Positions 35,343 through 64,000 of a stretch of DNA of 64,000 nucleotides are shown piece after piece (the stretch's first letter is position 1; the number at the start of each line of letters is the position of its first letter). The notes under the pieces are model-generated. The model was not told the DNA's origin. It ran no database searches and worked only from the letters and a program-made list of their open reading frames with translations. The position numbers and the translations under genes were made by a program. The stretch lies in contig CACKBL010000009.1 of the NCBI GenBank assembly GCA_902598305.1, positions 23,279 to 87,278 of the forward strand. Reading direction: 5' to 3'. The DNA comes from an uncultured Bacteroidota bacterium (GTDB lineage: Bacteria > Bacteroidota > Bacteroidia > Flavobacteriales > Flavobacteriaceae).

Positions 35343-35390
35343 GTTGAGATTTTTTATCTTTATTATAACATAATCATAAATCAAATCAAA

Positions 35391-36170: not shown

Positions 36171-36177
36171 CCTAAAA

Positions 36178-36360: not shown

Positions 36361-36474
36361 CCGTCATTATTAAATATTTTTCATTTGGAGGGTTTTTGTT
36401 TTAGTTATAGATAATTTAATTAAGTTGATATACTTCTTTGTATATTGAATGATATTAATCGCAAATAAATTGTA

Positions 36475-37005: not shown

Positions 37006-37056
37006 TAGTCTCCAACATAAATCTTTCTGAAATCACATAATAGTTAATTAAAAATA

Positions 37057-38470: not shown

Positions 38471-41449
38471 ATGAAAAAAAATGTAATGAAGAGTATTCTC
38501 TCTGTACTAGCCTTTTTGGTTTCAGTGGGAATTTATGCTCAGTCTGTTTCTGGACTTGTTACTAGTGAGGATGGTCCCCTACCAGGGGCAACTGTTCTTG
38601 TAAAAGGAACGAGTGAAGGAACTACGACTGATTTTGACGGAAATTTTACAATAAATGCTGGAGCAGATGATGTTCTTGTGGTATCATTTGTAGGATTTGT
38701 TTCACAAGAAGTTTCTGTTGCAGGACAAGATAACATAACAATTAATCTTGTTTCTGACAGTGAACTTGATGAAGTTATTGTAACTGGTTATGGTTCTCAA
38801 AATGAGAGAGAAATTACCTCAGCTACAGTAAATGTAAATGCTGAAGATTTTAACCAAGGGCCTATCAATGATCCAATTCAGTTACTTCAAGGTAAGGTCG
38901 CTGGTTTGACTATTTATAAACCAGGGGGTAATCCAAACGAATCACCTACTATTAGAATTAGAGGTCTTTCAACACTTGGTGCCAATACTTCCCCACTTGT
39001 TGTAATAGACGGAATTCCAGGTGCAACACTTGCCAGTATTGATCCTAATGATATTGAGTCTATGACCGTTCTGAAGGATGGTTCAGGTGCTGCTATCTAT
39101 GGTACAAGGGGATCCAGTGGTGTGATACTTATCACTTCTAAGAAAGGTAAATCTGGACCTATGCAGGTTAATTACAACACAAGTTTTGCACAAAGTTCAA
39201 TTGCTCAAAGAATTCCAGTGTTATCTGCGCAAGAATTTCTTGACAACGGTGGTACTCAACTTGGAACTCAAACTGATTGGGTAGATGCAATTACTAGAAA
39301 TGGAAGTAATGTTATCCACAACTTTTCAGTTGCTGGTGGTGGAGAGAAAAGTACATATAGAATGTCTGCCAATTTGAGAAAATCTGAAGGAATATTAAAT
39401 AGAACTGGATTTGATCAAATGAATACAAGAGCAGCACTTAGTACAAAAGCTCTTAATGACAAGTTAGATATTACTTTTAATATGGCTTACACGAAATTTG
39501 ATCGTGATTTAGGAGATGAAAGAGCTTTTGAATTTGCTCAATTTTATAATCCTACTGCACCAATCTACGCTGCAGATCCACTTGCTAAATATAAAGTTGA
39601 TCCAGTACAATTTGGTGGATATTTTGAACAGTTAGGTCTTTTTAGAAGTTATAATCCAGTTGCGATTATTGAGCAAACAAGAAATACAAGAGTTTCGACA
39701 GATTTTATTTATAATGTTGCAGCTACATACAATGTAACTGATAAGTTTGAAGTTACAGCAGTTGTATCTGAGCAAAGAACATCTTCTAATGATCAGCTCT
39801 ACAGACCAACTACGTTGTGGTTTGAAGGAAATGCAACTAGTCCGACTCGAAAAGGACTAGCTGACCACGCTAGTTTTAACTTTTCTTCTAAAGTTTTTGA
39901 ATACTATGGAAGATATAATATGGATTTAGGCTCTTCTAATTTGAATGTGACTGCTGGTTATTCTTACAACCAGTTTAACTCAAGAGGAACTCAGTTTTCT
40001 CTAGGTGATTTCCCAGATAATTCAATTGACTGGTCTAATGCAATTGGTGCATCTCAAGATTTATTAAATTCAGGTTTTATTGGTGCAAACAGTTACGCAT
40101 CTCCTGATGATAAAATCATCGGTATGTTTGCTCGGGCTAACCTTGTTATTAACAACAAGTATTTTGTTAATGCATCACTTAGAAGAGAAGGTTCGTCTAG
40201 ATTTGGTGCTGATCAAAGATGGGGGGTTTTCCCAAGTTTTGGTATTGGTGCTGATTTAAATGAGATTCTTGGCTTAGGATTAAGAAAGTTTAAAGTAAGA
40301 GCTAGTACTGCTACAACTGGAGCATTACCAGCAACTACTGGTTTAACAGCTCAAGCTAGAACATTCGTTTATGATGGAGGAGGTTCTGCTGGTGGTTCGA
40401 CTGTACTTAGTAGAGCTGCAAACGCTGATTTAAAGTGGGAAGAGAAAAATGAGTTTAATTTCGGAATAGAATATGAAACTGGAAAATTAGCTATAGACTT
40501 CGACGTTTACAACAGAGTAATAAAAGACTTTATTCTTGACAGACAAGTTGATGTTACCGTATTTGGTGTTGACAGAAGATTTGAGAATTCTGGACAGGTT
40601 ACATCTAAGGGTTGGGAATTAAAAGCTGAGTATGATGTAATCGATAATGACAAATTAAGTTATAATACTGGTTTGGCTTTTTGGAACAACAAAGTTATTC
40701 TAGATGAATACGTTCTTGACAGAGCTCAGTATGGATTCTTAGGTTCTCCAGGACAAAATGCTGTTACGATGGTAAAAGTTCAAGTTGGAGAAGAATTAGG
40801 TCAAATTTTTGCACCTGTGTTTGTAGGTGTAAATGCTGACGGTTCCCCACAATTTAAGGACGTCAACGGTGACGGTACACTAAATACCGATTCAGGAAAC
40901 GTACTTCAAGATAATTATGATGGTGAGGTTATTGGTAATGCATATCCGACTCTTGAAATGTCGTGGTCAAATAATGTGAATTTTGGAAATGGATGGTCTT
41001 TAAATGCCTTCTTCAGAGGAGCGTTTGGACACAGTCTAATTAATACATTTAGAGCCTTCTATGAGCCTAACGTCCCATCTCAGACATCTTACAACCAAAT
41101 GAACACATCTCTTAGAGAGCCAAACTTGGCAGTTGCCCAGTATAGTTCGTTATATGTAGAAAAAGCTGATTTTTTCTTACTTGACAACTTAACACTCTCT
41201 AAGCAAATAATAATGCCGGAGGGTAGCGGTATTAAAGATTTAACAGTATCTTTGAATGCGCTAAGACCTTTTGTGATAACCAATTACACAGGTACGGATC
41301 CTTCTCCTGAGCTTTTTGATGCTCTAGGTGGTGGTGAAGAAGGAAATGCTGCTTCTGGTGGAGCCGCACTACTTGCGCCTGGTATTGACAGAAGAGCGGA
41401 TTACTTCGCGAGTAAGACATTTTCTGTTGGATTAAGTGTTAACTTTTAA
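38471..41449 (+). CDS. SusC/RagA-family TonB-dependent outer-membrane transporter
   Basis: Signal peptide; CarboxypepD_reg-like N-domain (VSGLVTSEDGPLPGATVLVKGTSEGTTTDFDGNF); TonB-box-like DEVIVTGYG; plug (IESMTVLKDGSGAAIYGTRGSSGVILITSKKG); long barrel ending ...VGLSVNF. Confidence 0.9.
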   Translation: MKKNVMKSILSVLAFLVSVGIYAQSVSGLVTSEDGPLPGATVLVKGTSEGTTTDFDGNFTINAGADDVLVVSFVGFVSQEVSVAGQDNITINLVSDSELDEVIVTGYGSQNEREITSATVNVNAEDFNQGPINDPIQLLQGKVAGLTIYKPGGNPNESPTIRIRGLSTLGANTSPLVVIDGIPGATLASIDPNDIESMTVLKDGSGAAIYGTRGSSGVILITSKKGKSGPMQVNYNTSFAQSSIAQRIPVLSAQEFLDNGGTQLGTQTDWVDAITRNGSNVIHNFSVAGGGEKSTYRMSANLRKSEGILNRTGFDQMNTRAALSTKALNDKLDITFNMAYTKFDRDLGDERAFEFAQFYNPTAPIYAADPLAKYKVDPVQFGGYFEQLGLFRSYNPVAIIEQTRNTRVSTDFIYNVAATYNVTDKFEVTAVVSEQRTSSNDQLYRPTTLWFEGNATSPTRKGLADHASFNFSSKVFEYYGRYNMDLGSSNLNVTAGYSYNQFNSRGTQFSLGDFPDNSIDWSNAIGASQDLLNSGFIGANSYASPDDKIIGMFARANLVINNKYFVNASLRREGSSRFGADQRWGVFPSFGIGADLNEILGLGLRKFKVRASTATTGALPATTGLTAQARTFVYDGGGSAGGSTVLSRAANADLKWEEKNEFNFGIEYETGKLAIDFDVYNRVIKDFILDRQVDVTVFGVDRRFENSGQVTSKGWELKAEYDVIDNDKLSYNTGLAFWNNKVILDEYVLDRAQYGFLGSPGQNAVTMVKVQVGEELGQIFAPVFVGVNADGSPQFKDVNGDGTLNTDSGNVLQDNYDGEVIGNAYPTLEMSWSNNVNFGNGWSLNAFFRGAFGHSLINTFRAFYEPNVPSQTSYNQMNTSLREPNLAVAQYSSLYVEKADFFLLDNLTLSKQIIMPEGSGIKDLTVSLNALRPFVITNYTGTDPSPELFDALGGGEEGNAASGGAALLAPGIDRRADYFASKTFSVGLSVNF

Positions 41450-41485
41450 TTGATGGAGATTATTAATAATTTAAAAATGATAAAA

Positions 41486-43096
41486 ATGAATAAATTTATA
41501 ACAACAATACTTAATTTAAGTATTCTAACGTTCATATTCTCCTGTACCGATTTGGACGAGGATTTAAGAGGTGTGATTACCACAGACATTAGTGTTGAGG
41601 GAATTGCAACTGATGACGGAGGAAGTGGAGGAGGAGATGTTCTTGGTGGAGCATATGCTGGTTTACGTGGTACTGGAACAGGTGGCCACACTAACTGGTA
41701 TTCTGCACAGGAGCTGACTTCTGATGAGATGGTGGTTACCACCAAAGGTGGAGACTGGTATGATGGAGGCTGGTTAATTGATTTCCATCAACACAATTAT
41801 AAGAACACTAATCCTAGTGTAAATAACAATTGGAACAGTCACTATGGTGCAGTTGCTACTACTAATGAGCTACTAGCTTCTGGGCTAGATGCTAACGGCA
41901 CGGCGCAAATGTTAGCGTTAAGAGCTTATTTCTTTTGGAGATTGATGGATATGTACGGTAGTATTAAATTACCATTATCTCCAGGACAAGATGCCACTCA
42001 GGTGTCTAGGACTGAAGCCTTTAACCAAATTGAGAAGGATTTATTAGCCTCATTAGGTATAAGTGCTGTTAATTCATCAATGGATTTAAGTGGTAGTGCC
42101 CTTGGTACTGACAAAAATGCTTATAGAATTAACCAATTTGGTGCTTTAGGTATACTTGCAAAACTTTACTTAAATGCAGAAGTTTATACTGGAACTCCAA
42201 GATATCAAGAAGCTCACGACGCTGCTGACTACATTATTAACAATGGAGGATACACGCTTTGTGGTGTAGGTTGTAAAGTATCTAATTTAGGAAAGCGTCC
42301 TAAGGTTGCAGAAGATCCAGAAGAATTAGAAGGTTTTGCTGCAGTATTTGCTCCTAACAACGCCGGTAATCCAGAGCACATCTGGACTGTAAACTATGAG
42401 GCTGGAGTAAATGGTGGATTTAACTTAGCTATGATGGCTCTTCATTATTCAAGTCAATTGACATGGAATTTTGATTCTCAGCCATGGAATGGTTATTCAA
42501 CACTTGAAGCATTCTATAATTCTTTTGGTGCTAATGATGCTCGTAAAAAAGCAAGCTTTATTGCAGGACCACAGCTAGATTACGGTGGTAACACTCTTCT
42601 AGACTATGCAACTGACGATGGTGAACCAGCGTTAAATTATACTCCATATATAAATGAAATTTTCCCTGATGGATGTAGAGAATGCGGTGCAAGACCTGGT
42701 AAGTTCAGCTACAGACAGTTTGGAAGACCTGATATGGATAATGACTTTACTCTTTTAAGATTGGGTCAGATTTACTTAATCAGAGCTGAAGCTGCTGCTA
42801 GAGTTGGCGGTGGTTGGGATGGAGCTGCTGCTCTTGCTGATACAAATATTATCAGAAATAGAGCTAATGCAGGCGCTTACACTGCTGCTGAACTTACAGA
42901 AGATGAGTTCTTGGCTGAAAGAGGTAGAGAAATGTTCTCTGAAGCCGTTAGAAGAACGGATTTGATAAGATTTGGAAAATATAATGGTGCATGGTGGGAA
43001 AAATCCGCTTCTGAATCATATAAAAACATTTTCCCTATTCCGTTTGATGCCATCCAAGCAGCAAATGGTACTTTAAAGCAAAATCCAGGATACTAG
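41486..43096 (+). CDS. SusD/RagB-family outer-membrane lipoprotein
   Basis: Lipoprotein signal MNKFITTILNLSILTFIFSC followed by an acidic TDLDED. SusD-like helical blocks (LRAYFFWRLMDMYGSI, LLRLGQIYLIRAEAAAR), ending QNPGY. The open frame extends upstream to 41450. Confidence 0.85.
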   Translation: MNKFITTILNLSILTFIFSCTDLDEDLRGVITTDISVEGIATDDGGSGGGDVLGGAYAGLRGTGTGGHTNWYSAQELTSDEMVVTTKGGDWYDGGWLIDFHQHNYKNTNPSVNNNWNSHYGAVATTNELLASGLDANGTAQMLALRAYFFWRLMDMYGSIKLPLSPGQDATQVSRTEAFNQIEKDLLASLGISAVNSSMDLSGSALGTDKNAYRINQFGALGILAKLYLNAEVYTGTPRYQEAHDAADYIINNGGYTLCGVGCKVSNLGKRPKVAEDPEELEGFAAVFAPNNAGNPEHIWTVNYEAGVNGGFNLAMMALHYSSQLTWNFDSQPWNGYSTLEAFYNSFGANDARKKASFIAGPQLDYGGNTLLDYATDDGEPALNYTPYINEIFPDGCRECGARPGKFSYRQFGRPDMDNDFTLLRLGQIYLIRAEAAARVGGGWDGAAALADTNIIRNRANAGAYTAAELTEDEFLAERGREMFSEAVRRTDLIRFGKYNGAWWEKSASESYKNIFPIPFDAIQAANGTLKQNPGY

Positions 43097-43120
43097 AATC
43101 AATTTATTTGATTAAAAAAA

Positions 43121-43147
43121 GGCTTCCCTATTGGGGGGCCTTTTTTA
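43121..43147 (+). terminator. Rho-independent terminator after the SusC/SusD pair
   Basis: GGCTTCCC (43121-43128), loop TATT, GGGGGGCC (43133-43140). The 8-bp stem includes two G:U pairs. It is flanked by an A7 run upstream and a T6 run downstream. Confidence 0.6.
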
Positions 43148-43190
43148 TTTGAAACCATAACTTTAAATTTACTTTAAATATTAAATAGCT

Positions 43191-46100
43191 TTGATTAGAA
43201 TATTTATAAAGCTGTTATACAGTTTGCCTTTTGTTTTTCTTTCATGTGATGATAAATATGGAGAAAGATTTATTCGGTTTGAAGAAGAATCAGGATTGAT
43301 TTTTGAAAATAATCTTGAATACACCGAAAATTTAAATCCTTACACTTACAGAAATTTTTATAATGGTGGAGGAGTTGCTTTAGGAGATATAAACAACGAT
43401 GGTTTAATAGATGTTTATTTTACAGGAAATATCGTTGATAATAAATTATTTTTAAATAAAGGAAATTTTAAATTCGAAGATATTACTCCTACAGCTGGAG
43501 TTGCTTGTTCTAATGTCTGGTCAACTGGTGCGACCTTCGCAGATATAAATGGGGATGGTTTTTTAGATATCTATGTATGTAAGTCTGGACCCCCAGGTGG
43601 TAAAAATAGAAACAACGAACTTTTTATTAACAACGGTGATTTAACTTTCACAGAAAAATCAAAAGAATACAATTTAAATCTAACAGGTTTATCAGTTCAC
43701 TCTGCTTTTTTTGACTATGATAAAGACGGTGATTTGGACTGTTATATTTTAAATAATTCATTTAGAAACGTTGGAGGTTACGACTTAGTTGAAGATCAGA
43801 GAAAAATTCCTGATCCAGATGGTCAGGGGAATAAATTTTTTGAAAATGTGGGAAACAAATTTATCGATGTAACACAAAAAGCAAATATTTTTTCAAGTAA
43901 TATTGGATTTGGTTTAGGTATAACCCTAAGTGATTATAACAATGACGGTTGGACTGATTTGTTTATTTCTAATGACTTTTTTGAGAAGGATTATTTGTAT
44001 ATAAATAATAAGGACAAAACCTTTTCTGAAAAATCCACCAAATATTTTAAATCTATGTCACTTGGTTCTATGGGAGCTGATTCAGCAGACTTAGATAATG
44101 ATTTACTTACTGATTTATTTGTGACAGAAATGCTTCCGAAATCTTTGAAAAGAAGAAAGACAAAAGCGGTTTACGATTCTTGGGACAAACATCAACTAGC
44201 TGTATCAAAAGGTTACTATTATCAGTATCCAAGAAATGTTCTTCAAAGAAATTACGGAAATTCTGGATTTTTTGAAATAGGAAGATATTCTAACCTAGCT
44301 GCAACTGAATGGAGTTGGGCATCAATGATTTTTGATATGAACAATGATGGTCTAAGAGATATTTTCATTGCAAACGGTATATTCAAAGATCTTCTAGACA
44401 GAGATTATCTCGCTTATATGGCTAATAAGCAAAGGATTTCGAATTTAATGAAGTCAGGTGGTGAAGTTATTAAAAAGCTAATCGATATTATGCCATCTAA
44501 GGCTGTTAAAAACAATGTATATAGAAACGATGGTGATTTTGATTTTACTGAATTTACCGATCAGTGGGGATTTGATTCTCCAAGTTTTAGCAACGGAATG
44601 GCTTATGGAGATCTTGACAACGATGGTGATCAAGATATAGTTATCAATAATGTAAATATGAAATCTTTTGTCTACAATAATCAAAATGACAATGAAAGTT
44701 CAAAAAGTATATCATTTAATCTTAAAGGGGTTGATAAAAACAGAAACGCTATAGGCGCAAAACTCATAATTTACTATGGAGAAGCGAAATCTAGCATGTC
44801 TGAACATTTTCCCTCAAGAGGTTTTCAATCTTCAATTTCAAATAAAATTCACTTCGGTGTAGGTGACATTGACAAGGTAGACAGCTTAATAGTTTACTGG
44901 CCAAATGAAGAAATTTCAAAATTATATGATTTAAAAACAAATAAAACTTACAATGTTGATCAACAAGTGGAAAAGAGGTTCACTAAATTGAACAGACCAA
45001 AAGATAAAAAGAAAAATAAATTAAATGAAATTGATATTTTAAACCACTCACACACAGAAAACAAATTTATTGATTTTAACAAAGAAAGACTTATTCCTCA
45101 AATGTTTAGCAACGAAGGCCCTCCAATTATCTCGAGTGATTTAAATGGTGATAATGTTCCAGATTTTTTTGTGGGATCTTCTAAAAACCAAATATCTTCA
45201 CTTTTTCTATCCGATGATTTATCTTATAAAGAAATAATAAAACCATTTAAAAATCACAAAAATTCAGAAGACATTGATGCTGTTTTCTTTGACAGTGACA
45301 ATGATGGTGACAAAGATCTTTATGTGTCCTCCGGAGGAAAATCTTTTTCTAGATACGATAGTAATCTAGATGACAGACTTTATATTAACGAGGGAAATGG
45401 AAATTTTAAAGTTTCTAACTCCTCTATTTCTTTTGATAAACCCTTTTCAACAGGTGCAGTTGCTATTGGGGATTATAACAATGACTCATTGTTAGATATT
45501 TTTGTGGGAGAGCGATATGATGTAGATAGTTATGGCATTCCAGTATCTGGAAGACTTTATAAAAATATCGGAGGTAATAAATATGAATTTGTAAAAATTA
45601 AATCCTTTGATGACTTAGGTCTTATTAAATCTGCTAGATGGATAGATTTAAACTCCGATAATAATTTAGACTTAATTGTTTCAGGTGAGTGGATGCCAAT
45701 TAAAATATTTATAAATATCAATGGAGACTTCATTGACAAAACTAAAGAATACGGTTTAGAAAAATCAAATGGATTGTGGAGTGATATAGAAGTATCCGAT
45801 ATTGATAATGACGGTGACGTTGACTTGGTTGCGGCAAATTTTGGTCAAAATAATTTCTATAAACCCAATATGAAAATGTTTGTTAATGATTTTGATTTAA
45901 ATGGATTTAAAGAGCAAATAATATGCTACGAAATAGATGGGAAAAATTATCCAATTTTAGATAAAGACGAGTTAGTAGCACAGCTGCCTGGAATAAAGAA
46001 AAAAATTGTCTACTACGAAGATTACGCTAATCTAAGCGTAGACCAGATTTTTGGCCAAGAAACTATTGAAAATTCAGTAGTGTTAAATTTAAATATTTTA

Positions 46101-46454: not shown

Positions 46455-47016
46455 AATATTTTTTATAATAATAAATTTGATTTTAATTGTTGGTTGTCAA
46501 AAAAAATCCGAGTATTCAACAATATTAACAAGGGAATTAGAAAAGAAAAATGAGTTTAACGACTTGATTTTTGACATGAAAATTGGACAATCAAGGCAAG
46601 ACTATTTTGATATTTGTTATCAACTTAACAAACAAAAAAAGATAATTTCAGGTGAAAGAAGTTTAAATCCAGAGTTAATTCTCAAATCGAAAAACGGTTC
46701 AACAAAAGGGAGTAATATTAAAATGTCATTTAATGGAATTTTTAATGAAAAAAAAACAATGAGAGGTTTTGAAATGAGATTTTATTTTACTGGATGGTCA
46801 AATTGGAATAAAGATTTATCCTCTGAAAATCTTCTATTTCAGTTGAAAGATACACTAAGGAAATGGTTTCCGGGGAATGATTTTTTTAAAGTTAACTTTG
46901 AAAATAATCTTTCTGCTGAAGTAAAAATTGATGGTAACAGGAGAATTTTAGCCTACAAAGTTAACTCCAAGGACGTAGCAGTAAGAATTGAAGATATGAG
47001 TGGTAAATATGATTAA
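46423..47016 (+). CDS. Hypothetical small lipoprotein embedded in the paralog array
   Basis: Lipoprotein signal IIINLILIVGC. 197 aa. Overlaps the upstream gene by 32 nt and the downstream ATG (47009) by 8 nt. Confidence 0.6.
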   Translation: MKKLNFLNLNRIFFIIINLILIVGCQKKSEYSTILTRELEKKNEFNDLIFDMKIGQSRQDYFDICYQLNKQKKIISGERSLNPELILKSKNGSTKGSNIKMSFNGIFNEKKTMRGFEMRFYFTGWSNWNKDLSSENLLFQLKDTLRKWFPGNDFFKVNFENNLSAEVKIDGNRRILAYKVNSKDVAVRIEDMSGKYD

Positions 47017-50278: not shown

Positions 50279-50280
50279 AG

Positions 50281-53568: not shown

Positions 53569-53685
53569 CGTTTTTCATAGTTTAATTGGGGGTAATTATC
53601 TAAAGCAATATTCATATAATAGGTAAAACAAATTAAATATAAGGTTAAGTTATTGCAATAATAAATTTTAATCTCTCTTAGTCAA

Positions 53686-53693
53686 TAGATTTG
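53686..53693 (+). promoter_or_regulatory. Candidate -7 promoter box (TAnnTTTG) upstream of the PSCyt/DUF1553 gene
   Basis: TAGATTTG lies about 45 nt upstream of the ATG at 53738, inside the only sizeable intergenic gap (169 nt) of the downstream operon. Confidence 0.3.
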
Positions 53694-53737
53694 ATGGTAT
53701 ATAAAATGTCTGTTTTTTGTAAATTAGTAGTTGTTTT

Positions 53738-56700: not shown

Positions 56701-56992
56701 AATTCTAGCAGAAAGGATTCAAAAAGAAAAGCCTTCCTCTATTGAGGAATCAATTAAGCATGGATTTCGTTTGTGTACCTCGAGAAAACCAAGAGACAAG
56801 GAAATAGAATTACTTAAGAATTTGTATGATCAGCAGTTAAAAAAATTCAAACAAAACCCTAAACTCGCATATAATATTTTTAAAAATGGAAAAAAACCTA
56901 GAGATAAAACCTTAAATTTATATAAAACTGCAGCGCTATCCATGGTGGCAAATGTAATGTTAAACCATGATGAAGTTTATATGAAAAGATAA
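53738..56992 (+). CDS. Planctomycete-type cytochrome-like protein: PSCyt/DUF1549 - LamG lectin-like - DUF1553/PSD1
   Basis: CxxCH at CYSCH (53885-53899) within HVKPILSDRCYSCHGPDEKSRRAGLRLD. DUF1549-like FISKKLQAKGL...RRLYFDLTGLPPS. Second CxxCH, CAKCHDHKFDP (54743-54757). LamG-like LEFDGSNQVF...WHHVAFSYDG...LFLNGE. DUF1553-like C-terminus (RVAVNRYWQMVFGRGIV, FDAPTREVCTVKR). Confidence 0.85.
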   Translation: MQMRVLFFVLFVFSYGCTLTVPKEVEVKFSEIPGRVDFNYHVKPILSDRCYSCHGPDEKSRRAGLRLDQEKTAFMKLSSGKKAIDPGSLGGSEMAHRILSDDPDEVMPTPESNLSLTNTEKAILLKWIEQGAEWKEHWSFLPVQEVSSSSSDQFKNPIDYFISKKLQAKGLNFSAKSSKEKLIRRLYFDLTGLPPSIEEVESFVKSDDKNAYLNIVNKLLGSDEHAERLTMDWLDVSRYADSHGLHADGIRTMWPWRDWVINAFKSNTPYDEFVSVQLSGDMRENATKEEKLATAFNRNNPMTAEGGVIDEEWRLNYVFDRTETLGTAVMGLTLMCAKCHDHKFDPISQKDYYQLSAFFNQTREIGMTGDDGDFGPLLFLPDEKIEKKLNKIQLAINTKNKELDTKIQELERFYSYVDNLSNFDSKSIARKNIIEKVSFNKIRKQKVTSDDKILIVQGSFGRETDFIIDNSRDITSYHKQDLGKGIVGRALEFDGSNQVFVEKVPNFEWTESFSAAFWFKTTKRKKGFTQSLLTTTGGKNSWWRGWDLILDDKNYLNLRLISSLPGDAIHVKSLDSLKVNNWHHVAFSYDGSGNSSGINLFLNGEKINKKVVFDNLKKSILPVSSSGIHLQEQALKIGASGDFSSGDNGWVEGLMDELFVFNKSISTYELKNLYNTYNIEKKVFDNKEKVEHLIFNDASIIKIKRQIKNLKKQWLDNISDVKTVMVMEEMKEKRKTFLYDRGSYQLPSYEVEADVPSKLPKMSPDMPKNRLGLSKWIFDKKNPLTARVAVNRYWQMVFGRGIVNTPGDFGVQGQLPSHPNLLEYLSYYFMEKDWNIRDLLRLMVTSHTYMQSSKPNQKQVEIDPDNILLSRSNSYRLPAEMIRDNALAASGLLVKHIGGKSVRPYQPKGLWKEKSNFSIKLLNYKESTGDSLYRRSMYTFIRRTNPPPSMSTFDAPTREVCTVKREITNTPLQALVLLNDPQFVEASRILAERIQKEKPSSIEESIKHGFRLCTSRKPRDKEIELLKNLYDQQLKKFKQNPKLAYNIFKNGKKPRDKTLNLYKTAALSMVANVMLNHDEVYMKR

Positions 56993-57000
56993 ATTTAAAT

Positions 57001-58458
57001 ATGAATTGTAATCACCACCACCATAACGAAAAATTTTCTAGGAGAGATTTTTTAACAAAAACCTCTCTAGGACTGGGTGCCCTAACACTTGGATCCCTAA
57101 TAAGTCCTGCAAGAGCTTTTAGTGGGGTTTCAAGTCTAAATAATGTAAATATTCCACCTCAAATACCACATTTTCCTGCAAAAGCTAAAAGAATTATTTA
57201 TTTGTTCCAGAGTGGTGCACCTTCTCAAATAGATCTTTTTGATCACAAACCTCTTATAACAGAGATGCATGGTAAAGAGTTACCCCCAAGCGTTAGAGGT
57301 GGCCAAAGGTTGACAGGTATGAGTGCAGGTCAAGCTTCGTTTCCACTAGTATCATCTATTTATGATTTTAAACAGTATGGTCAAAGCGGAGCTTGGGTTA
57401 GTGAACTAATGCCGCATACGTCAAAAATTGTTGATGAGCTTTGTTTCATTAAATCGATGTACACAGAAGAAATTAATCATGACCCAGCTGTTACTTTTAT
57501 TCAAACAGGTTCAAACCTTCCCGGTAGACCTTCAATGGGTTCATGGATTAGCTATGGTTTAGGATCTGACAATAAAAATCTACCCGAATTCGTAGTACTT
57601 GTCACAAAAGATAAACAGGGTCAGCCTTTATATGCTCGTTCTTGGGGTAACGGATTTTTACCATCCAAATACCAAGGTGTCCAATTTAGATCTGGTAAGG
57701 ATGCTGTTCTTTATTTACAAAATCCACCGGGTGTAACGGGTGACTTGAGAAGAGAACAACTTGAATATTTAAAAAAACTTGAAAATGATAATTATAGAGA
57801 TATAGGTGATCCTGAAATTTTATCTAGAATGTCTCAGTATGAAATGGCATACAGAATGCAAACATCTGTCCCTGAAGTCATGGATGTTTCGGACGAACCA
57901 GATTATATTTTTGATATGTATGGGGAGGATAGTAAAAACCCCGGGACATTTGCAGCTAATTGTCTGCTTGCAAGAAAACTTATAGAAAAAGATGTAAAAT
58001 TTGTTCAATTATATCATCAAGGGTGGGATCACCATGGGAATTTAAATAAAGAACTCAAAATACAATGCAAAGACACAGATCAACCCTCTGCAGCTCTTAT
58101 TATGGATTTAAAACAAAGAGGTCTTCTAGAAGACACACTAGTGATATGGGGTGGAGAATTTGGGAGAACTAATTATACTCAAGGCGTTATAACCGACCCT
58201 GGTTATGGTAGAGATCATCATCCAAGATGTTTTACTATCTTCATGGCAGGCGCTGGAATAAAAAAAGGAATCACTTACGGAGCAACCGATGAATTCGGTT
58301 ATAATTTAAGGGAAAACCCAGTCCATGTTCATGATTTTCAAGCCACAATTTTGCACCTTTTGGGTCTTGATCACGAAAAATTAACTTTTAAGCACCAGGG
58401 CAGGAGATATAGATTAACAGATGTTCACGGAAAAATTGTAAACGATATACTTGTATGA
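57001..58458 (+). CDS. DUF1501-family protein (sulfatase/alkaline-phosphatase-like fold) with a Tat signal
   Basis: Tat leader SRRDFLTKTSLGLGALTLG. DUF1501-like blocks GWDHHGN, WGGEFGRT and GRDHHP. Confidence 0.85.
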   Translation: MNCNHHHHNEKFSRRDFLTKTSLGLGALTLGSLISPARAFSGVSSLNNVNIPPQIPHFPAKAKRIIYLFQSGAPSQIDLFDHKPLITEMHGKELPPSVRGGQRLTGMSAGQASFPLVSSIYDFKQYGQSGAWVSELMPHTSKIVDELCFIKSMYTEEINHDPAVTFIQTGSNLPGRPSMGSWISYGLGSDNKNLPEFVVLVTKDKQGQPLYARSWGNGFLPSKYQGVQFRSGKDAVLYLQNPPGVTGDLRREQLEYLKKLENDNYRDIGDPEILSRMSQYEMAYRMQTSVPEVMDVSDEPDYIFDMYGEDSKNPGTFAANCLLARKLIEKDVKFVQLYHQGWDHHGNLNKELKIQCKDTDQPSAALIMDLKQRGLLEDTLVIWGGEFGRTNYTQGVITDPGYGRDHHPRCFTIFMAGAGIKKGITYGATDEFGYNLRENPVHVHDFQATILHLLGLDHEKLTFKHQGRRYRLTDVHGKIVNDILV

Positions 58459-59510
58459 AAAAAAATAATAATTCTAGAAGAAATTTTATAAAAAATTCTG
58501 CTATTGTTGGATTAGGTGTTGCTTCAGCTAACAAAACATTCTCTATTGGAAAAAAAAGTAAATCGTTAGAAAATACTATTGGGCACAACGGATTTACATA
58601 TAAAATTGATAAAAGTTGGAGTAAACAGAATTTAAACACACACCCAGTTCATCATTGTCATGAAATGATTATGGATAAAAAAGGAAGATTATTCATGACA
58701 ACAACACACAAAAAAAATAATGTTTTGGTTTACAATAAGGATGGAAATATTTTAGATGGTTGGAGCGTCGGATTTAATGGTGCGCATGGATTAACACTTA
58801 GTAATGAAGGTGGTACTGAATTTTTATATATTACCGATCCAGATTTGCATAGGGTGTGTAAAACCGATTTGAACGGAAAACTCATTCTCGAAATTTTTTA
58901 TCCTAAAGAAATTAAAGATTATTCTTCCCAAGATGACTTTAAACCAACCGAAACTGCAATTGCCCCAAATGGAGATATATATATCGCTGACGGTTATGGT
59001 AAAGATTTTATTATAAAATACGATCAAAAAGGAAACTACATAGGACATTTTGGAGGTAAGGGAGATGGTAAAAACCATTTTGATTGTTGTCATGGGATAA
59101 CCCTTGATAGCCGATTTAATCAAAACCCAACTCTTCTTATTTCATCTAGAACAAAAAATGAGTTCAAAAGATTTACTTTGAGTGGAAAACATTTAGAGAC
59201 TATCTCTCTTCCAGGTTATTGGATGTGTAGACCAGTTATCAAAGGCGATAATCTTTATTTTGCTATTATTAATACTTACAATTGGTGGAATTATGATGGT
59301 ATGATTGCAGTTTTAGATAAAAATAATAAAGTAATTTCACTTCCAGGAGGAGGTAAGCCATCATATAATAATGGTGTAATTAATAAACCCGTTTATGACG
59401 ATCGTAGTTTTCTAAACCCACACGATGTTTGTGTAGACGATGACGAAAACATCTACGTTCCTCAGTGGAACTCGGGTAGAACAACTCCTTTAAAATTAAT
59501 TAGAGTTTAA
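58455..59510 (+). CDS. Tat-signal six-bladed beta-propeller protein (NHL/PAL-like)
   Basis: Tat leader SRRNFIKNSAIVGLGVASA. Repeated blade-like motifs (AHGLTL, DIYIADGYG, CHGITLD, NIYVPQWNSG). The ATG overlaps the upstream TGA (ATGA). Confidence 0.65.
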   Translation: MKKNNNSRRNFIKNSAIVGLGVASANKTFSIGKKSKSLENTIGHNGFTYKIDKSWSKQNLNTHPVHHCHEMIMDKKGRLFMTTTHKKNNVLVYNKDGNILDGWSVGFNGAHGLTLSNEGGTEFLYITDPDLHRVCKTDLNGKLILEIFYPKEIKDYSSQDDFKPTETAIAPNGDIYIADGYGKDFIIKYDQKGNYIGHFGGKGDGKNHFDCCHGITLDSRFNQNPTLLISSRTKNEFKRFTLSGKHLETISLPGYWMCRPVIKGDNLYFAIINTYNWWNYDGMIAVLDKNNKVISLPGGGKPSYNNGVINKPVYDDRSFLNPHDVCVDDDENIYVPQWNSGRTTPLKLIRV

Positions 59511-59519
59511 ACTTTACTT

Positions 59520-60872
59520 TTGGAAGCTGTTTTTTTTCTTGGAAGATTTCATCCATTGCTAGTTCACTTGCCAATTGGTTTTTTGATTCTTGCTATTTTA
59601 ATTGAAGTTTATTGCTCTATTTTTAAAATTAGAATTAATCAGAGTGTAATCAATTTTACTTGGTTTGTAGCTTTCTTTTCCTCTGTCTTGACAACAATTC
59701 TAGGGCTTTTAATTGCAGAGACAGGTCATTACATAGATGAAAATTTATCTATGCATAAAATCTTTGGTTTGTCTTTAACAGGAATCACATTCATATCATG
59801 GTTTCTAAGGTTATCCATTTTTTCAAATTTATTTTCATCTTCACTAAAAACATTATCAAATGTCATAATCGTTATCCTTTTAACTTTAACGGGTCATTAC
59901 GGTGGAAATTTAACCCATGGTGAAACATATCTTGTGGATTATGCTCCAGAACAAATAAAAGAGCTAGTTGTTAATAAAAATAAAAACATAGAATTAGAAA
60001 TTGATTCTGTAAAAATTTACAATGACCTTATACAACCGATTTTTAATCAAAAGTGTGTTTCTTGCCACAACAAAGAAATATCTAGAGGAAATCTAAATAT
60101 GGATTCCTACAGTAATCTTCTAAAGGGTGGGAGTAGTGGTAATCCTATAAATAAATCTGACCCTAGAAAAAGCTTGTTGATAAAGAGAATTACTATGCCA
60201 ACAAGTGAACTCAAATATATGCCTCCAGATGGAGAGCCTGTATCATTTGATGAAATTAAAACTCTTATATGGTGGATAAATAATTTTGACAAATCGAATG
60301 AAAATTTAGCATCATTAAAAGTTGAGGATGATATAAAAGAATCACTTGAAATACTTTATAGTTTGAATTTTAAAGAAAAACAATGGTTCGAAAAAATCGT
60401 AGTAGAAAAATTAGATGAATCTTTAATTCAAAATATTGATAATACTACATTTCAAATTAAATACATTTCGGATGACAAAAAATTTCTGTCAGTAAAATAC
60501 TTAAAGAAAAATGCAAGTATTAATGATATTGAAAAACTTCAAAAAATTAGCAGTAATATTACCTATCTCACAGTAAAATCTTCAAATCTGTCTAATGATA
60601 TGATCAAAAGCATATCTAATTTTAAAAACATAGTAAAACTTGAGATTCAAGACAATAATATTGATGATGAAAGTATTGAAATTCTTCAATCACTCAATAA
60701 TCTTGAAATACTTAACATCCACAACACAAAAATTACAAATAGAGCTATTGAATCCCTTAAAAATTTTAAAAATTTAAAAAGGGCATATGTTTGGGGAACA
60801 AGTATATCTAAAAATGAAGTAGACGATTTTAACAGAAAGGATTCAAAGCTTAAATTAATTGGAGGGAATTAA
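59520..60872 (+). CDS. Membrane protein: DUF2231-like 4-TM domain + PSCyt1-type CxxCH domain + leucine-rich repeats
   Basis: FHPLLVHLPIGF (DUF2231-like). CxxCH CVSCH at 60054-60068, within IQPIFNQKCVSCHNKEISRGNLNM. C-terminal LRRs (LEIQDNNIDDESIEILQSLNNLEILNIHNTKITNRAIESLKNFKNLK). TTG start inferred. Confidence 0.7.
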   Translation: MEAVFFLGRFHPLLVHLPIGFLILAILIEVYCSIFKIRINQSVINFTWFVAFFSSVLTTILGLLIAETGHYIDENLSMHKIFGLSLTGITFISWFLRLSIFSNLFSSSLKTLSNVIIVILLTLTGHYGGNLTHGETYLVDYAPEQIKELVVNKNKNIELEIDSVKIYNDLIQPIFNQKCVSCHNKEISRGNLNMDSYSNLLKGGSSGNPINKSDPRKSLLIKRITMPTSELKYMPPDGEPVSFDEIKTLIWWINNFDKSNENLASLKVEDDIKESLEILYSLNFKEKQWFEKIVVEKLDESLIQNIDNTTFQIKYISDDKKFLSVKYLKKNASINDIEKLQKISSNITYLTVKSSNLSNDMIKSISNFKNIVKLEIQDNNIDDESIEILQSLNNLEILNIHNTKITNRAIESLKNFKNLKRAYVWGTSISKNEVDDFNRKDSKLKLIGGN

Positions 60873-60949
60873 TTTTTTCCAGAAATAAATAACTATAGTT
60901 CATAAAGAAAATAGATTATCAGTTAAGTTTAAAAAATATTAGTTTTAAT

Positions 60950-60957
60950 TAATTTTG
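60950..60957 (+). promoter_or_regulatory. Candidate -7 promoter box (TAnnTTTG) upstream of the haloperoxidase-like gene
   Basis: TAATTTTG ends 9 nt before the ATG at 60967, which would give a very short leader. Support is positional only. Confidence 0.3.
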
Positions 60958-60966
60958 TAATTATTT

Positions 60967-62316
60967 ATGAGGAAGGTATTTAAACACTTTATTATTTTAT
61001 TTTTGACTGTTAGCTGCGTAAGTAAAGAATTTAATCAAGATGAGCTTAATGATGCAGCACTTTTTCATTCTGCGATGCAAAACCTATCAGATATAATTGT
61101 GTATGATATTTTTTCTCCCCCTGTTGCCTCCAGAGTTTATCTATATCCTTCGATCGCGGCTTACGAACTAATGGCTAAAGACATGCCTCTAAAGTATAAA
61201 TCCCTTGTTGGTCAGGTAAAAGGATTAACAAAAATACCTGAACCAGATAAAATTTTTAAAAATTACAACTTAAATCTTACTATTTTATTTGCATTTAACA
61301 AAGTTGGAAGGGCACTTATTTTTTCAGATGAATTGATGGATAAGTTTGAAAAAAGGTTTAACGACAAGTTAATTTCAATGGGCGTACCTAAAAAAATAAA
61401 AACTGCCTCTGAAAAATACGCAGAAAGGGTTGCTAAGCATATTTTAAATTGGGCGAAAGACGACTTATATAATCAAACAAGAACATATTCAAAATATACA
61501 ATTTTAGAAGACGAGGTTTTTTGGAAACCCACGCCGCCAGATTACATGGATGGAATTGAACCTCACTGGAATAAAATTAGAACTTTAGTTTTAGACTCAG
61601 CAAATCAATTTGTTCCAAAAAAACCGTTAAAGTTTGATTTGACAAAGGGCAGTCCTTTTCAAAAGCAACTCCAAGAAGTTTATGAGATTGGAAATATAAT
61701 GGATCCTGAAAAGATTGAGATTGCAAAGTTTTGGGATTGTAACCCTTATGTAACGCACCATAGAGGACATGCAATGTTTGCAACCAAAAAAATAACACCA
61801 GGTGGACACTGGATTGGTATTACGGCTATTGCTGGTAGAACAGCAAATAGTAATTTTGGCGAAGTAGTAAATGCTTATGCCAATGTTTCAATTTCATTGT
61901 TCGACTCTTTTATTAGTTGCTGGGATGAAAAGTGGAGGTCTATATTGGTTAGACCAGAAACTCTAATTAATCAGCACTATGATGAAGAATGGTTACCTCT
62001 TCTACAAACCCCACCATTTCCCGAGTACACAAGTGGTCATTCAGTAATTTCTCGAGCTGCTGCAACATCTCTTACCAGATTATATGGTGACAATTTTAAA
62101 TTCACTGATACAACTGAGGTTGCATACGGTCTACCGTCAAGAAAATACAATTCATTTATTGAAGCTTCTGACGAAGCGGCTATATCTAGACTATATGGCG
62201 GTATACACTATAGAATGGCTATTGAGGAGGGAGTTTCGCAAGGAGTAAAGGTTGGAAATTTTATATCTGAGAATCTTAAGACAAACCTAGATTCTTACAA
62301 ATTAGCAACAAAATAA
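60967..62316 (+). CDS. PAP2-superfamily vanadium-haloperoxidase-like lipoprotein
   Basis: Lipobox LFLTVSC. PAP2/vanadate-site motifs K-x6-RP (KWRSILVRP, 61930-61956), SGH (62032-62040) and SR-x5-H (SRLYGGIH, 62185-62208). Confidence 0.75.
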   Translation: MRKVFKHFIILFLTVSCVSKEFNQDELNDAALFHSAMQNLSDIIVYDIFSPPVASRVYLYPSIAAYELMAKDMPLKYKSLVGQVKGLTKIPEPDKIFKNYNLNLTILFAFNKVGRALIFSDELMDKFEKRFNDKLISMGVPKKIKTASEKYAERVAKHILNWAKDDLYNQTRTYSKYTILEDEVFWKPTPPDYMDGIEPHWNKIRTLVLDSANQFVPKKPLKFDLTKGSPFQKQLQEVYEIGNIMDPEKIEIAKFWDCNPYVTHHRGHAMFATKKITPGGHWIGITAIAGRTANSNFGEVVNAYANVSISLFDSFISCWDEKWRSILVRPETLINQHYDEEWLPLLQTPPFPEYTSGHSVISRAAATSLTRLYGDNFKFTDTTEVAYGLPSRKYNSFIEASDEAAISRLYGGIHYRMAIEEGVSQGVKVGNFISENLKTNLDSYKLATK

Positions 62317-62405
62317 AAGTTTGTTTTTTTAAATATTTGTTTTATATCCCTGTTTTTGCTTATATTTATCGACTTATTAACATTTAATTAACAATATTCT
62401 CTGTT

Positions 62406-64000
62406 ATGAAAAAATTAATCTTAGAAAAATCAAAGTATATATTAACACTTTGTCTTCTTCTATTTGTATCACTAGGGTTTTCGCAATCTATATCAGGTAC
62501 TGTGACTGACGCGGAAACTGGTGATCCATTATTGGGGGTGACAATTGTTTTAAAAAATACAAATAAAGGAGTAGTTACTGATTTTGACGGTAACTATATA
62601 ATAAATAATGTTGAGCCAGGTGATTACACAATAGACCTGTCTTACATAGGGTATGGTCGTTTATCTCAAACTATTACAGTCGGAGCAGACGACGTAACAT
62701 ACGACTTTGTAATGTCTTTTTCAGCATCTAAACTTGATGAACTTGTTGTCACTGGTACGGGTGCTCCCGTTGCGAGAAAAAAAATAGGAAATAGTATTGG
62801 CTCAATTTCCACAGCAAAATTGGAAAACTTGCCTATAAATTCTTTTTCTGACATACTTCAAGGAAGAGAGCCTGGTTTGGTAGCTTTCCCCTCAGGAGGT
62901 CTGAATGGTGAAGGTGCACAAATTAGAATTCGCGGGAACGCTTCACTTTCTCAGTTAAATGAACCAATTATTATTGTCGATGGAGTTAGAGTCGATAGAG
63001 GCGGTGGTTTTGGAGGTTACATTAACACTGGTGGTGGTTCAAGTTCAAGGCTTGATGATATTAACCCAGAGGCAATTGAAAGAATAGAAATACTTAAGGG
63101 TGCTTCTGCAGCTACATTATTTGGGACTGAAGCAAGTAACGGTGTAATTCAAATTTTTACCAAAAAAGGGCAAATCGGTGCTCCAAAATTTAATTTTAAA
63201 GCAACACAAGGATGGATTAATTTTCCAAAAGGTAAATTTGCAGACAATACTGGTTGGACTTCAAGTGCGTCTACAGCCGCAAGGATGAGTACAGTTCTTG
63301 GAAGATCAGTTTCGCCTTATGAACTTGTAAGTTTCAACGCTACAGAAGATCTTTTTGAAACTGGTTTTAATAATATAGTCAACTTGAATGTTTCGGGAGG
63401 TAGTGAATTTATGACTTACTTCGCCTCTGCCAGATATCAATATTCAGATGGCCCTATTGGTGGTAAAGAAAGACAAGGATATCTTGAGGGGCAAAAAACG
63501 AATGCTTCAGATATTAATGAGATGGGTGGTTTTAATATTAATTTAAACATAAATCCAAGTGATAAATTTAATATTAGATTGACTTCAGGTTTTACTTCTA
63601 GATATCAAACAACACTACAAAATAATAACAACATTTATGGTACAGGTTCGTTAGCTCAATTTAGTAAACCTGAATTGGTAACCGAAAGTAATACAACCGG
63701 AGTAATTGCTTTTGCAACTGTAGATGAAACTTTACAATTGGGTTATAACACAAGAATAAACCACTATAATGGTAGTGTTGGACTTAATTATTATGCTACT
63801 GATTGGCTTAAGTTAGATGGTACTTTCGGAATCGATTACTCAGGCCAAGTGAGTGAAGATTTTTGGCCATTCCAATGGAATATTGATGGTTTTTCTGGTA
63901 GTAGACCAACTGGTCAATTATCTGTTGGAACTAGAGACTATATGGCTAAAACTGCTGAAATAAAAATAGTTATGGATAACAAACTTGGATCACTTACTTC
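62406..64000 (+). CDS. Second SusC/RagA-like TonB-dependent transporter, 3' end outside the window
   Basis: Hand translation from the ATG at 62406 is open to the window end; it is absent from the ORF track because there is no stop. MKKLILEKSKYILTLCLLLFVSLGFSQ signal. CarboxypepD_reg-like ISGTVTDAETGDPLLGVTIVLKNTNKGVVTDFDGNY. TonB-box-like DELVVTG. Plug IERIEILKGASAATLFGTEASNGVIQIFTKKG. Confidence 0.85.
   Translation, partial: MKKLILEKSKYILTLCLLLFVSLGFSQSISGTVTDAETGDPLLGVTIVLKNTNKGVVTDFDGNYIINNVEPGDYTIDLSYIGYGRLSQTITVGADDVTYDFVMSFSASKLDELVVTGTGAPVARKKIGNSIGSISTAKLENLPINSFSDILQGREPGLVAFPSGGLNGEGAQIRIRGNASLSQLNEPIIIVDGVRVDRGGGFGGYINTGGGSSSRLDDINPEAIERIEILKGASAATLFGTEASNGVIQIFTKKGQIGAPKFNFKATQGWINFPKGKFADNTGWTSSASTAARMSTVLGRSVSPYELVSFNATEDLFETGFNNIVNLNVSGGSEFMTYFASARYQYSDGPIGGKERQGYLEGQKTNASDINEMGGFNINLNINPSDKFNIRLTSGFTSRYQTTLQNNNNIYGTGSLAQFSKPELVTESNTTGVIAFATVDETLQLGYNTRINHYNGSVGLNYYATDWLKLDGTFGIDYSGQVSEDFWPFQWNIDGFSGSRPTGQLSVGTRDYMAKTAEIKIVMDNKLGSLT

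Follow-up and report, generated by a model that had tools for sequence, protein, structure and literature searches.

A SusC/D-based locus of an uncultured marine flavobacterium, very probably a composite of described modules around a catalogued utilisation core

Gene content and layout of the locus

A stretch of 64,000 nucleotides from an uncultured Bacteroidota bacterium of the Flavobacteriaceae (GenBank assembly GCA_902598305.1, contig CACKBL010000009.1, positions 23,279 to 87,278 of the forward strand), called the window throughout, carries at its right end a locus with two SusC-type transporters, three giant FG-GAP/ASPIC lipoproteins, a haloperoxidase and a PSCyt/DUF1501 cassette. The lineage is an AT-rich member of the family known only from marine-metagenome contigs, metagenome-assembled genomes and single-cell genomes. 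The open reading frames (ORFs) of the window were listed and scanned with Pfam and NCBIfam; Pfam covered all ORFs of at least 100 aa, six of which gave no match. The twelve co-directional plus-strand genes between 38471 and 64000 that a first-pass annotation had read from the letters were borne out together with their domains (Table 1), as was the impression that proteins of families without known function make up most of the locus. That annotation had regarded the block as an undescribed uptake system, possibly for a non-glycan substrate. We arrive at another reading: the block is very probably a lineage-specific composite of previously described modules around the core of a catalogued polysaccharide utilisation locus (PUL). 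Distinctive at this site are the lack of carbohydrate-active enzymes (CAZymes), regulator and symporter, the combination of the haloperoxidase with the PSCyt/DUF1501 cassette, and the extra SusC/D pair.

In gene strings, C1 and D1 stand for SusC1 and SusD1, F1 to F3 for the ASPIC lipoproteins, s for a small lipoprotein, P for the PSCyt/DUF1553 protein, U for the DUF1501 protein, N for the NHL protein, Y for the DUF2231-cytochrome-LRR (leucine-rich repeat) protein, V for the haloperoxidase, and C2 and D2 for the second SusC/D pair. SusC1 comprises CarboxypepD_reg, Plug and barrel domains in Pfam; the STN signalling domain was absent from SusC1 and SusC2 in the same scan. SusD1 starts without a gap after SusC1, its listed start being a TTG, and its signal peptide and lipobox cysteine come after an internal methionine. 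Lipobox cysteines are present in SusD1, F1, F2, F3, s, P and V, twin-arginine signals in U and N. Exactly three CxxCH motifs occur, as had been counted before: two in P (residues 50 and 336) and one in Y (residue 179). Adjacent susC-like and susD-like genes, the operational mark of a PUL, are found twice, in pair 1 and, with a weakly matching SusD-like gene just past the window end, in pair 2. The CAZyme of the strict PUL definition was absent by Pfam and NCBIfam from 38471-64000 and from the 3 kb beyond.

The 94-nt gap between SusD1 and F1 (43097-43190) folds at a dG of -25.2 kcal/mol and holds a perfect 14-bp GC-rich hairpin with a T-run; the terminator-like element noticed earlier is real, at about 43119-43148. 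It would fit an attenuation that keeps SusC/D above the accessory proteins in abundance. The intergenic gaps at 53569-53737 and 60873-60966 were confirmed, and two more, of 94 nt before F1 and 89 nt before SusC2, were found. One TAnnTTTG motif precedes P by 44 nt and another precedes V by 9 nt, and the genes of the series F1/s/F2/F3 and P/U/N/Y overlap or abut. Overlaps, hairpin and motifs taken together are compatible with what are probably three to five transcription units, in keeping with the several units that the first-pass annotation had expected. A sigma-70 promoter scan of 44-64 kb was uninformative (91 sites against 98 expected), and a terminator scan of the same region returned fewer sites than in shuffled sequences.

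Table 1. Features of the locus in window coordinates
Feature	Position	Strand	Evidence
SusC1, SusC/RagA-type TonB-dependent transporter, 992 aa	38471..41449	+	TIGR04056, 572 bits
SusD1 lipoprotein, 548 aa	41450..43096	+	SusD_RagB, E 1.4e-20
Candidate terminator/attenuator, GC-rich hairpin and T-run	43119..43148	+	Sequence; gap fold -25.2 kcal/mol
F1, CRTAC1-like FG-GAP/UnbV_ASPIC lipoprotein, 1087 aa	43191..46454	+	FG-GAP_3 6.6e-62, UnbV_ASPIC 9e-18
s, small conserved lipoprotein, 197 aa	46423..47016	+	No family match; conserved position
F2, CRTAC1-like FG-GAP/UnbV_ASPIC lipoprotein, 1092 aa	47000..50278	+	Pfam; PDB 9etn, 6.9e-18
F3, CRTAC1-like FG-GAP/UnbV_ASPIC lipoprotein, 1095 aa	50281..53568	+	Pfam
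P, PSCyt1, PSCyt2/DUF1549, Laminin_G_3 and PSD1/DUF1553 lipoprotein, 1084 aa	53738..56992	+	Pfam
U, Tat-exported DUF1501 protein, 485 aa	57001..58458	+	DUF1501 2.7e-160; RRDFL
N, Tat-exported NHL beta-propeller, 351 aa	58455..59510	+	NHL, DUF5128; RRNFI
Y, DUF2231, PSCyt1 cytochrome c and LRR, 450 aa	59520..60872	+	Pfam; LRR matches in PDB
V, PAP2/VCPO_2nd lipoprotein, 449 aa	60967..62316	+	PDB 4CIT/4USZ, E 5e-142
C2, second SusC-type transporter, cut by window end	62406..64000	+	TIGR04056, 274 bits on 531-aa fragment

The conserved core, the haloperoxidase and their sugar-type neighbours

A metagenome scan anchored on SusD1 yielded 21 loci. In all 12 that were long enough to show the core, with SusD identities of 54-90%, the order was C1-D1-F1-s-F2-F3, and SusC1 orthologues (48-95% identity) always stood ahead of SusD1 orthologues. 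V and a symporter stood downstream of the core or divergently upstream of it; P-U-N-Y between F3 and V plus C2-D2 after V was present only in the three closest relatives (L007, L009, L010). The core order of the window, with its small hypothetical protein between the first and the second ASPIC gene, is that of PUL103, which has the predicted substrate "trehalose" and reads LacI::SusC::SusD::ASPIC/UnbV::hypothetical::ASPIC/UnbV::ASPIC/UnbV, a "hypothetical protein" occupying the position of s (Kappelmann et al. 2019, PMC6298971, Suppl. Table S3). In the same catalogue, PULs 103 and 116 contain the glycoside hydrolases (GH) GH37 and GH13, PUL62 of Dokdonia sp. Hel1_63 is GH13::SusC::SusD::ASPIC x3 and labelled alpha-glucan, and PUL156 of Gramella forsetii KT0803, labelled unknown, is TBDR (TonB-dependent receptor)::SusD::FG-GAP::FG-GAP::vanadium-dependent haloperoxidase family::GyrI-like, thus with a haloperoxidase family protein after FG-GAP genes as in the window. 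PUL47 of Cellulophaga sp. RHA_19 runs GntR::SusC::SusD::repeat protein::GH36 alpha-galactosidase::SSS symporter::glycerol kinase::PAP2 and hints at a pairing of propeller and PAP2 protein also for galactosyl-glycerol-type (floridoside-like) substrates. Matching SusC/D proteins were present in North Sea spring-bloom metaproteomes at up to 0.19 %NSAF (normalised spectral abundance factor; Kappelmann et al. 2019, PMC6298971).

With a core order conserved in 12 of 12 loci and present as PULs 103, 62 and 156, the system can no longer be called undescribed. Literature searches on ASPIC, DUF1501, iodoperoxidase and CRTAC1 yielded no description of the cluster, which was found as the predicted "trehalose" PUL of Kappelmann et al.; the families go unmentioned in Francis et al. 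2021 and Krueger et al. 2019. The catalogued ASPIC loci differ from the window in carrying LacI, GH37 and GH13, or GH13 alone, whereas the window has none of these and instead the PSCyt/DUF1501/NHL/DUF2231 cassette and a second SusC/D pair. The canonical Sus system of B. thetaiotaomicron shares with the window adjacent SusC and SusD followed by surface lipoproteins and a hairpin after susD, but the window copy is without GH, SusE/F/G equivalents, regulator and inner-membrane transporter.

F1, F2 and F3 are paralogues, 37-46% identical to each other, and each consists of 8-11 FG-GAP_3 repeats and one UnbV_ASPIC domain, the architecture of the CRTAC1/ASPIC family. Between 9 and 12 Dx[DN]x[DN]G calcium-loop motifs were counted per protein, nine of them in F1, whose lipobox LSC is followed by DD. 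F2 matches human CRTAC1 (PDB 9etn) at 6.9e-18. Propeller and UnbV_ASPIC domain are thus shared with vertebrate CRTAC1; in contrast to it the window proteins have double the length and two propeller regions, are lipoproteins, and form a set of three paralogues within an uptake operon. The small protein s gave no match in Pfam, NCBIfam or PDB, a Pfam scan of 20 homologues returned noise alone, and the single-sequence structure model was unusable (pLDDT 49). Its position is conserved: 30 of 80 genome loci have it flanked by F1 and F2, and W125, W128 and G171 are invariant.

These 80 loci came from a scan anchored on V, with one genome per species and V identities of 56-86%; the ORFs within a 10-kb flank were labelled by BLASTP against the window proteins. 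V itself matches PDB 4CIT over residues 2-438 of 449 (E 5e-142, 51% identity). The entries 4CIT and 4USZ are the vanadium-dependent iodoperoxidase Zg-VIPO1 of Zobellia galactanivorans. We take its vanadate ligands to be K324, R331, S358, G359, H360, R410 and H416, and its second shell to be Y263, C320, W321, D322 and F353, a numbering that was checked on the native Zobellia sequence. All 12 residues are kept in V and are invariant across a 10-sequence alignment. In Zobellia sp. OII3 a protein 100% identical to the crystallised Zg-VIPO1 is encoded directly after three 1100-aa FG-GAP/UnbV_ASPIC genes. On account of the full-length homology and of this location, V is the sequence and positional orthologue of Zg-VIPO1, so that the "VHPO-like" gene drops out of the set of supposedly undescribed components; homology and site residues mark it as a putative iodoperoxidase of the Zg-VIPO1 type. 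Both enzymes have a lipoprotein signal and an ASPIC neighbourhood. They differ in that the 7.1-kb P-U-N-Y cassette keeps V apart from F3, and in that SusC2/SusD2 come after V where Zg-VIPO1 has a GyrI-like gene.

The V-anchored loci span Flavobacteriaceae, Cyclobacteriaceae, Flammeovirgaceae, Lewinellaceae and Haliscomenobacteraceae. ASPIC genes are present in 58 of the 80. In 65 the sequence reaches far enough upstream to be informative, and in 39 of these no more than 1.5 kb separates the end of an ASPIC gene from V. F1-s-F2-F3-V is the string seen most often, in many cases with a GPH-type symporter of the major facilitator superfamily (MFS) after it, and in most relatives the F3 stop overlaps or abuts the haloperoxidase start. 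SusC/D is seen upstream whenever fewer F genes leave space within the flank.

An orthologue of an iodoperoxidase raises the question of an iodine or peroxide system, in which the F-V core would oxidise iodide at the cell surface for iodine accumulation or to detoxify H2O2 and halide defences of algae, as has been proposed for Zobellia and Arenibacter; SusC/D would import an iodinated or oxidised product. The characterised enzyme is reportedly iodide-specific in vitro. Iodine uptake by Arenibacter C-21 requires H2O2 and Ca2+, the genome of this strain holds five Zg-VIPO homologues, and the calcium-loop motifs mark the F proteins as Ca-binding propellers. Yet the core occurs without V (L090, L092, L115) and V without the core (L015, L025, L029), the neighbour genes are sugar-type and not halide-related, and the locus has no H2O2-producing oxidase. 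Both the surface oxidation and the import of its product are regarded as very improbable.

The sugar-type neighbours became apparent when recurrent unlabelled genes of the relatives were annotated with Pfam. A LacI regulator stands immediately upstream of SusC and divergent from it in L096, L100-102 and L104/105/112, the last three of which also have a GH65 phosphorylase, a HAD protein (beta-phosphoglucomutase-like), an MFS transporter and a sugar-phosphate isomerase; L110 has a histidine kinase and a response regulator upstream. Among the 80 V-anchored loci, an SSF symporter was found in 20, a GPH symporter in 19, an FGGY kinase in 15, a GH37 trehalase in 16, often directly after V, and a GH13 with SusG_C domain in 10, placed between F and V in L057 and L060. 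Further recurrent neighbours are G3P dehydrogenase, GDPD, ROK kinase and a SusE/F-like protein. Counted over the 80 loci, one or more sugar-type neighbours are present in 46, and GH37, GH13 or GH65 in 20. We estimate that a single-copy GH37 of a 4-5 Mb genome would lie in fewer than 1% of randomly placed 20-kb windows, so GH37 is strongly enriched at V loci.

The window itself presents another picture. No CAZyme, peptidase or regulator was recognised in the locus by Pfam and NCBIfam, as the first-pass annotation had stated; its additional claim that no sulfatase is present applies at the motif and family level only, since U has a sulfatase-type fold (see below). Nor was a transcription-factor gene found by Pfam among the ORFs of at least 100 aa in the 64 kb, which agrees with the earlier observation, and dedicated regulators (hybrid two-component system, SusR, LacI/GntR, extracytoplasmic function sigma/anti-sigma) were absent from the window in the same scan. 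GH37, GH13 and LacI of the Kappelmann type are absent from the window and from its downstream extension. The sole glycoside hydrolase of the window is an unrelated GH2 on the minus strand (8904-12191), about 26 kb upstream.

The first-pass annotation had thought of a non-glycan or chemically modified marine substrate. With such a substrate, e.g., a phenolic, halogenated or redox-active organic compound, oxidative chemistry by the haloperoxidase and the cytochromes would replace glycoside hydrolases. This view is favoured by the lack of CAZymes in the locus, by its three haem c sites and by the presence of a haloperoxidase orthologue and of cofactor enzymes exported by the Tat (twin-arginine translocation) pathway. 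In accordance with it, gene densities of PSCyt and GH families are inversely related, and PSCyt proteins have been suggested to mirror GH functions by another mechanism (He et al. 2017, PMC5615132). However, orthologous cores are flanked by LacI, GPH and SSF symporters, GH37, GH13 and GH65 with beta-phosphoglucomutase-like genes, P has a LamG domain of carbohydrate-binding type, and the published PUL tables list the core among alpha-glucan and trehalose loci. A non-glycan substrate is thus disfavoured and in our view improbable. As the orthologous cores are wired to sugar regulators, symporters and hydrolases, an alpha-glucoside-type glycan or glycoside is the most likely substrate class; for the window organism itself the assignment is tentative, at somewhat less than even chance.

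The P-U-N-Y cassette, the second SusC/D pair and the flanks

The haem-binding motifs of P are CYSCH in PSCyt1 (residue 50) and CAKCH in PSCyt2 (residue 336), that of Y is CVSCH (residue 179). P had no match in a PDB sequence search, and N shows a weak similarity to PDB 3fvz (2.9e-8), the Zn-dependent lyase domain of peptidylglycine alpha-amidating monooxygenase. U begins with MNCNHHHHNEKFSRRDFL and has four consecutive histidines immediately ahead of the twin-arginine motif; its family, DUF1501, comprises 27,459 representative clusters at E<=0.001. As a single sequence U gave one insignificant and unrelated PDB match (E 0.053). A 39-sequence profile gave weak matches, with E>=0.013 to sulfatases, nearly all to LtaS or S1 sulfatases. 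The AlphaFold2 model (pLDDT 86, pTM 0.85) yielded 185 PDB matches at E<=0.001 in Foldseek. The top 50 (E 1.5e-7 to 2e-5) were S1 sulfatases, phosphonate monoester hydrolases, LtaS or an unnamed protein of the alkaline-phosphatase superfamily, with modest TM-scores of 0.3-0.4. The modelled structure of U is of the alkaline-phosphatase/sulfatase-superfamily fold. The C/SxPxR formylglycine motif of S1 sulfatases and a Pfam Sulfatase match were both absent from U. In an alignment of 39 homologues W342-D343-x-H345 and G403-R404-x-H406 are invariant and S75 is nearly so; judged from this conservation, these residues are candidate metal ligands and nucleophile.

The pair of DUF1501 and PSCyt1/PSCyt2/(LamG)/PSD1 proteins is a described module of unknown function in Planctomycetes and Verrucomicrobia, for which a role in electron transfer or a carbohydrate-related role was proposed (Kamneva et al. 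2012, PMC3542564; He et al. 2017, PMC5615132), and so this part of the locus is not undescribed either. As in that module, a DUF1501 protein with Tat signal is encoded in the window beside a PSCyt1-PSCyt2-LamG-PSD1 protein (Laminin_G_3). Four-gene versions of Kamneva et al. also have a second PSCyt1 protein fused to repeats, WD40 there and LRR here. The window copy differs in being flavobacterial, in lying inside a SusC/D locus, and in two additions, an NHL propeller and, on the second cytochrome, a DUF2231 membrane anchor.

Four arrays, sampled separately, have P-U-N-Y after ASPIC genes, and they represent at least three groups of Y identity (83-98%, 52% and 45-46%); the Y homologues at 52%, 46% and 45% sit in F-F-P-U-N-Y arrays without V (L090/L091, L092, L115). 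This order, kept at 45-52% Y identity, ruled out a random insertion of the cassette. At 37% Y identity, a P-P-U-Y array without NHL adjoins sialic-acid genes (L117, 1755-15857): two PSCyt/DUF1553 genes, a DUF1501 and a DUF2231-cytochrome-LRR gene lie directly upstream of an FMN-dependent dehydrogenase, followed by a DHDPS/Neu5Ac-lyase-type gene, a GlcNAc 2-epimerase and a BNR sialidase. Therefore the cassette also accompanies a sialic-acid locus. Y alone was found in Zobellia roscoffensis (38% identity). The recurring arrays make P-U-N-Y a recurrent accessory of glycan loci, especially of those with the ASPIC core.

An exact-protein look-up placed the same sequence on a 294.8-kb ENA contig (L001; ERZ28548084, mantis_2 contig_16101), from which the end of the locus could be read. 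SusC2 is 1069 aa long there (11440-14649) and is followed by D2, a 437-aa lipoprotein (14660-15973) with a weak SusD_RagB match (2.9e-4) and a SusD-like C-terminus; a SusD-like partner, which had been expected just past position 64000, is thus present. Enzymes or regulators of the locus, which had been thought possible there as well, did not turn up. Past D2, L001 has a minus-strand gene and then gene fragments; past the SusC2/SusD-like pair, L007, a relative of 88% identity, has an M28 peptidase, a HamA_HO-like gene, LysE and IMPDH. Since the locus ends with the second SusC/D pair, followed by unrelated genes, an ordinary CAZyme-rich PUL downstream, to which the block might have been peripheral, is excluded, and CAZymes hidden in the downstream DNA were ruled out by the sequences of L001 and L007. 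The M28 peptidase, HamA_HO-like and LysE genes are broken into short fragments in L001 (16600-19213, 7 kb past the window end) and intact in L007 (16030-19157); the fragments reflect either frameshift errors of long-read assembly or real pseudogenes.

Could the ASPIC SusC/D operon, the PSCyt/DUF1501 cassette, the haloperoxidase and the second SusC/D pair be independent co-directional neighbours without shared function? V, with or without a symporter, stands without F genes in L015, L025 and L029, P-P-U-Y lies beside the sialic-acid genes of L117, Y is solitary in Z. roscoffensis, and in L096 and L097 neither V nor P-U-N-Y is within reach of the core. In the window, TAnnTTTG motifs occupy the gaps before P and V. 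C2 and C1 share just 25% identity, and D2 cannot be aligned with D1. Against such independence stand the adjacency of F and V in 39 of 65 informative loci from five families, the recurrence of F-F-P-U-N-Y in at least three identity groups, and start/stop overlaps inside the P-U-N-Y series, at the s/F2 junction and, among relatives, where V follows F3. We consider a mere juxtaposition unlikely.

Nine co-directional genes lie directly upstream of SusC1 (29035-38256, plus strand): glutathione peroxidase, a Cys/Met PLP enzyme, a PIG-L deacetylase, a GxDLY/SGNH esterase, two beta-lactamase-family serine hydrolases and three genes without Pfam match. The beta-lactamase-family, esterase and PIG-L genes were not supported as locus members, being absent from all neighbourhoods of SusC1 orthologues; because they are not found beside SusC1 orthologues elsewhere, the nine genes probably form a separate cluster. 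Farther upstream (8904-13820) the GH2 beta-galactosidase on the minus strand adjoins a DUF4440 protein and a 343-aa protein of the alkaline-phosphatase superfamily with weak Sulfatase and Metalloenzyme matches; GH2 and the 343-aa protein are the sole CAZyme- or sulfatase-like genes of the window and are unrelated to the locus. Between 15047 and 17299 (minus strand) a 750-aa fusion of fatty-acid desaturase, Rieske [2Fe-2S] and FAD/NAD-binding reductase is encoded that, judged from its domains, would be a self-sufficient desaturase or oxygenase. In six Flavobacteriaceae loci (L004, L012, L015, L025, L029, L090) one chromosomal spot, between a queG/cytochrome-oxidase/Act cluster and malic enzyme-ruvA-sprA, holds the full C-D-F-s-F-F-V-MFS array, or only (LacI-)V(-MFS), or F-F-P-U-N-Y, a pattern suggesting that modules were gained and lost there more than once.

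Proposed function and significance

The whole is best explained, and we think rather probably, as a modular SusC/D-based nutrient-uptake locus of four units with a likely alpha-glucoside-type substrate. The data above show the genes and their orthology, the conserved synteny, the locus end and the fold of U; in the following scheme we infer protein localisation, substrate class and all enzymatic steps. SusC1-SusD1-F1-s-F2-F3 would form an outer-membrane unit that captures and perhaps pre-processes the substrate, which SusC1 would import with TonB energy. The second unit is V, the iodoperoxidase orthologue and usually the last enzyme gene of the operon. P-U-N-Y, the third, may act on imported material in the periplasm by a redox-linked removal of ester or other modifications; the proteins of both V and P-U-N-Y would work in the periplasm or at the membrane. 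The divergent SusC2/D2, as fourth unit, stands where relatives carry an inner-membrane sugar symporter and would import a related or derived compound. Orthologous cores being connected to LacI, GPH/SSF, GH37, GH13, GH65 with beta-phosphoglucomutase-like genes, glucokinase and glycerol kinase, the regulator, hydrolases and symporter may have been lost or relocated in the window lineage, with cytoplasmic catabolism encoded elsewhere or lost. The substrate is possibly esterified or otherwise modified. The PAP2-type V and the alkaline-phosphatase-type U, two accessory enzymes, alternative or additive, with folds related to phosphatases or sulfatases, and the GDPD, metallophosphoesterase and glycerol-kinase neighbours elsewhere hint at an esterified or glycerol-linked glycoside, which is speculation.

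Several points weigh against this explanation. A sugar transporter, a regulator and, apart from the unrelated GH2, a glycoside hydrolase are absent from the 38 kb upstream and the about 5 kb downstream; as the window lineage lacks them nearby, the sugar assignment is drawn wholly from the relatives. A disaccharide hardly explains three surface propellers of 1090 aa. The 169- and 94-nt gaps with promoter-like TAnnTTTG motifs permit independent transcription, and since V (L015, L025, L029), P-U-Y (L117) and the core (L096-L097) each occur alone, the units of the block may also function apart. The anion site of PAP2-fold enzymes is common to acid phosphatases. We know of no physiological role of Zg-VIPO1 and of no function of bacterial ASPIC, DUF1501 and PSCyt proteins. 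The label "trehalose", finally, is a bioinformatic prediction and not an experimental result (Kappelmann et al. 2019, PMC6298971).

For annotation the locus is a caution: a PUL free of CAZymes and regulators can be a reduced ordinary sugar locus and is not necessarily a new kind of system. The locus family is spread across Bacteroidota, its SusC/D types are seen in bloom metaproteomes, and its signature proteins, the three giant CRTAC1-like lipoproteins and the orthologue of the vanadium iodoperoxidase, are without assigned biochemical role. Zg-VIPO1, the only characterised bacterial iodoperoxidase, is now placed inside a conserved SusC/D operon, and the PSCyt/DUF1501 cassette recurs as an add-on to the same ASPIC operon. 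Culturable test cases are Zobellia, Gramella forsetii and strain MAR_2010_105. A bolder idea, to which we give a low probability, is that ASPIC propellers, iodoperoxidase and PSCyt/DUF1501/NHL/cytochrome cassette constitute a non-hydrolytic pre-processing machinery coupled to SusC/D import; with similarly small likelihood this machinery would be oxidative, halogenating or ester-cleaving and would open a modified algal glycan or glycoside without classical CAZymes. If true, it would provide the first physiological role for bacterial vanadium iodoperoxidases, for bacterial CRTAC1 homologues and for the DUF1501/PSCyt families.

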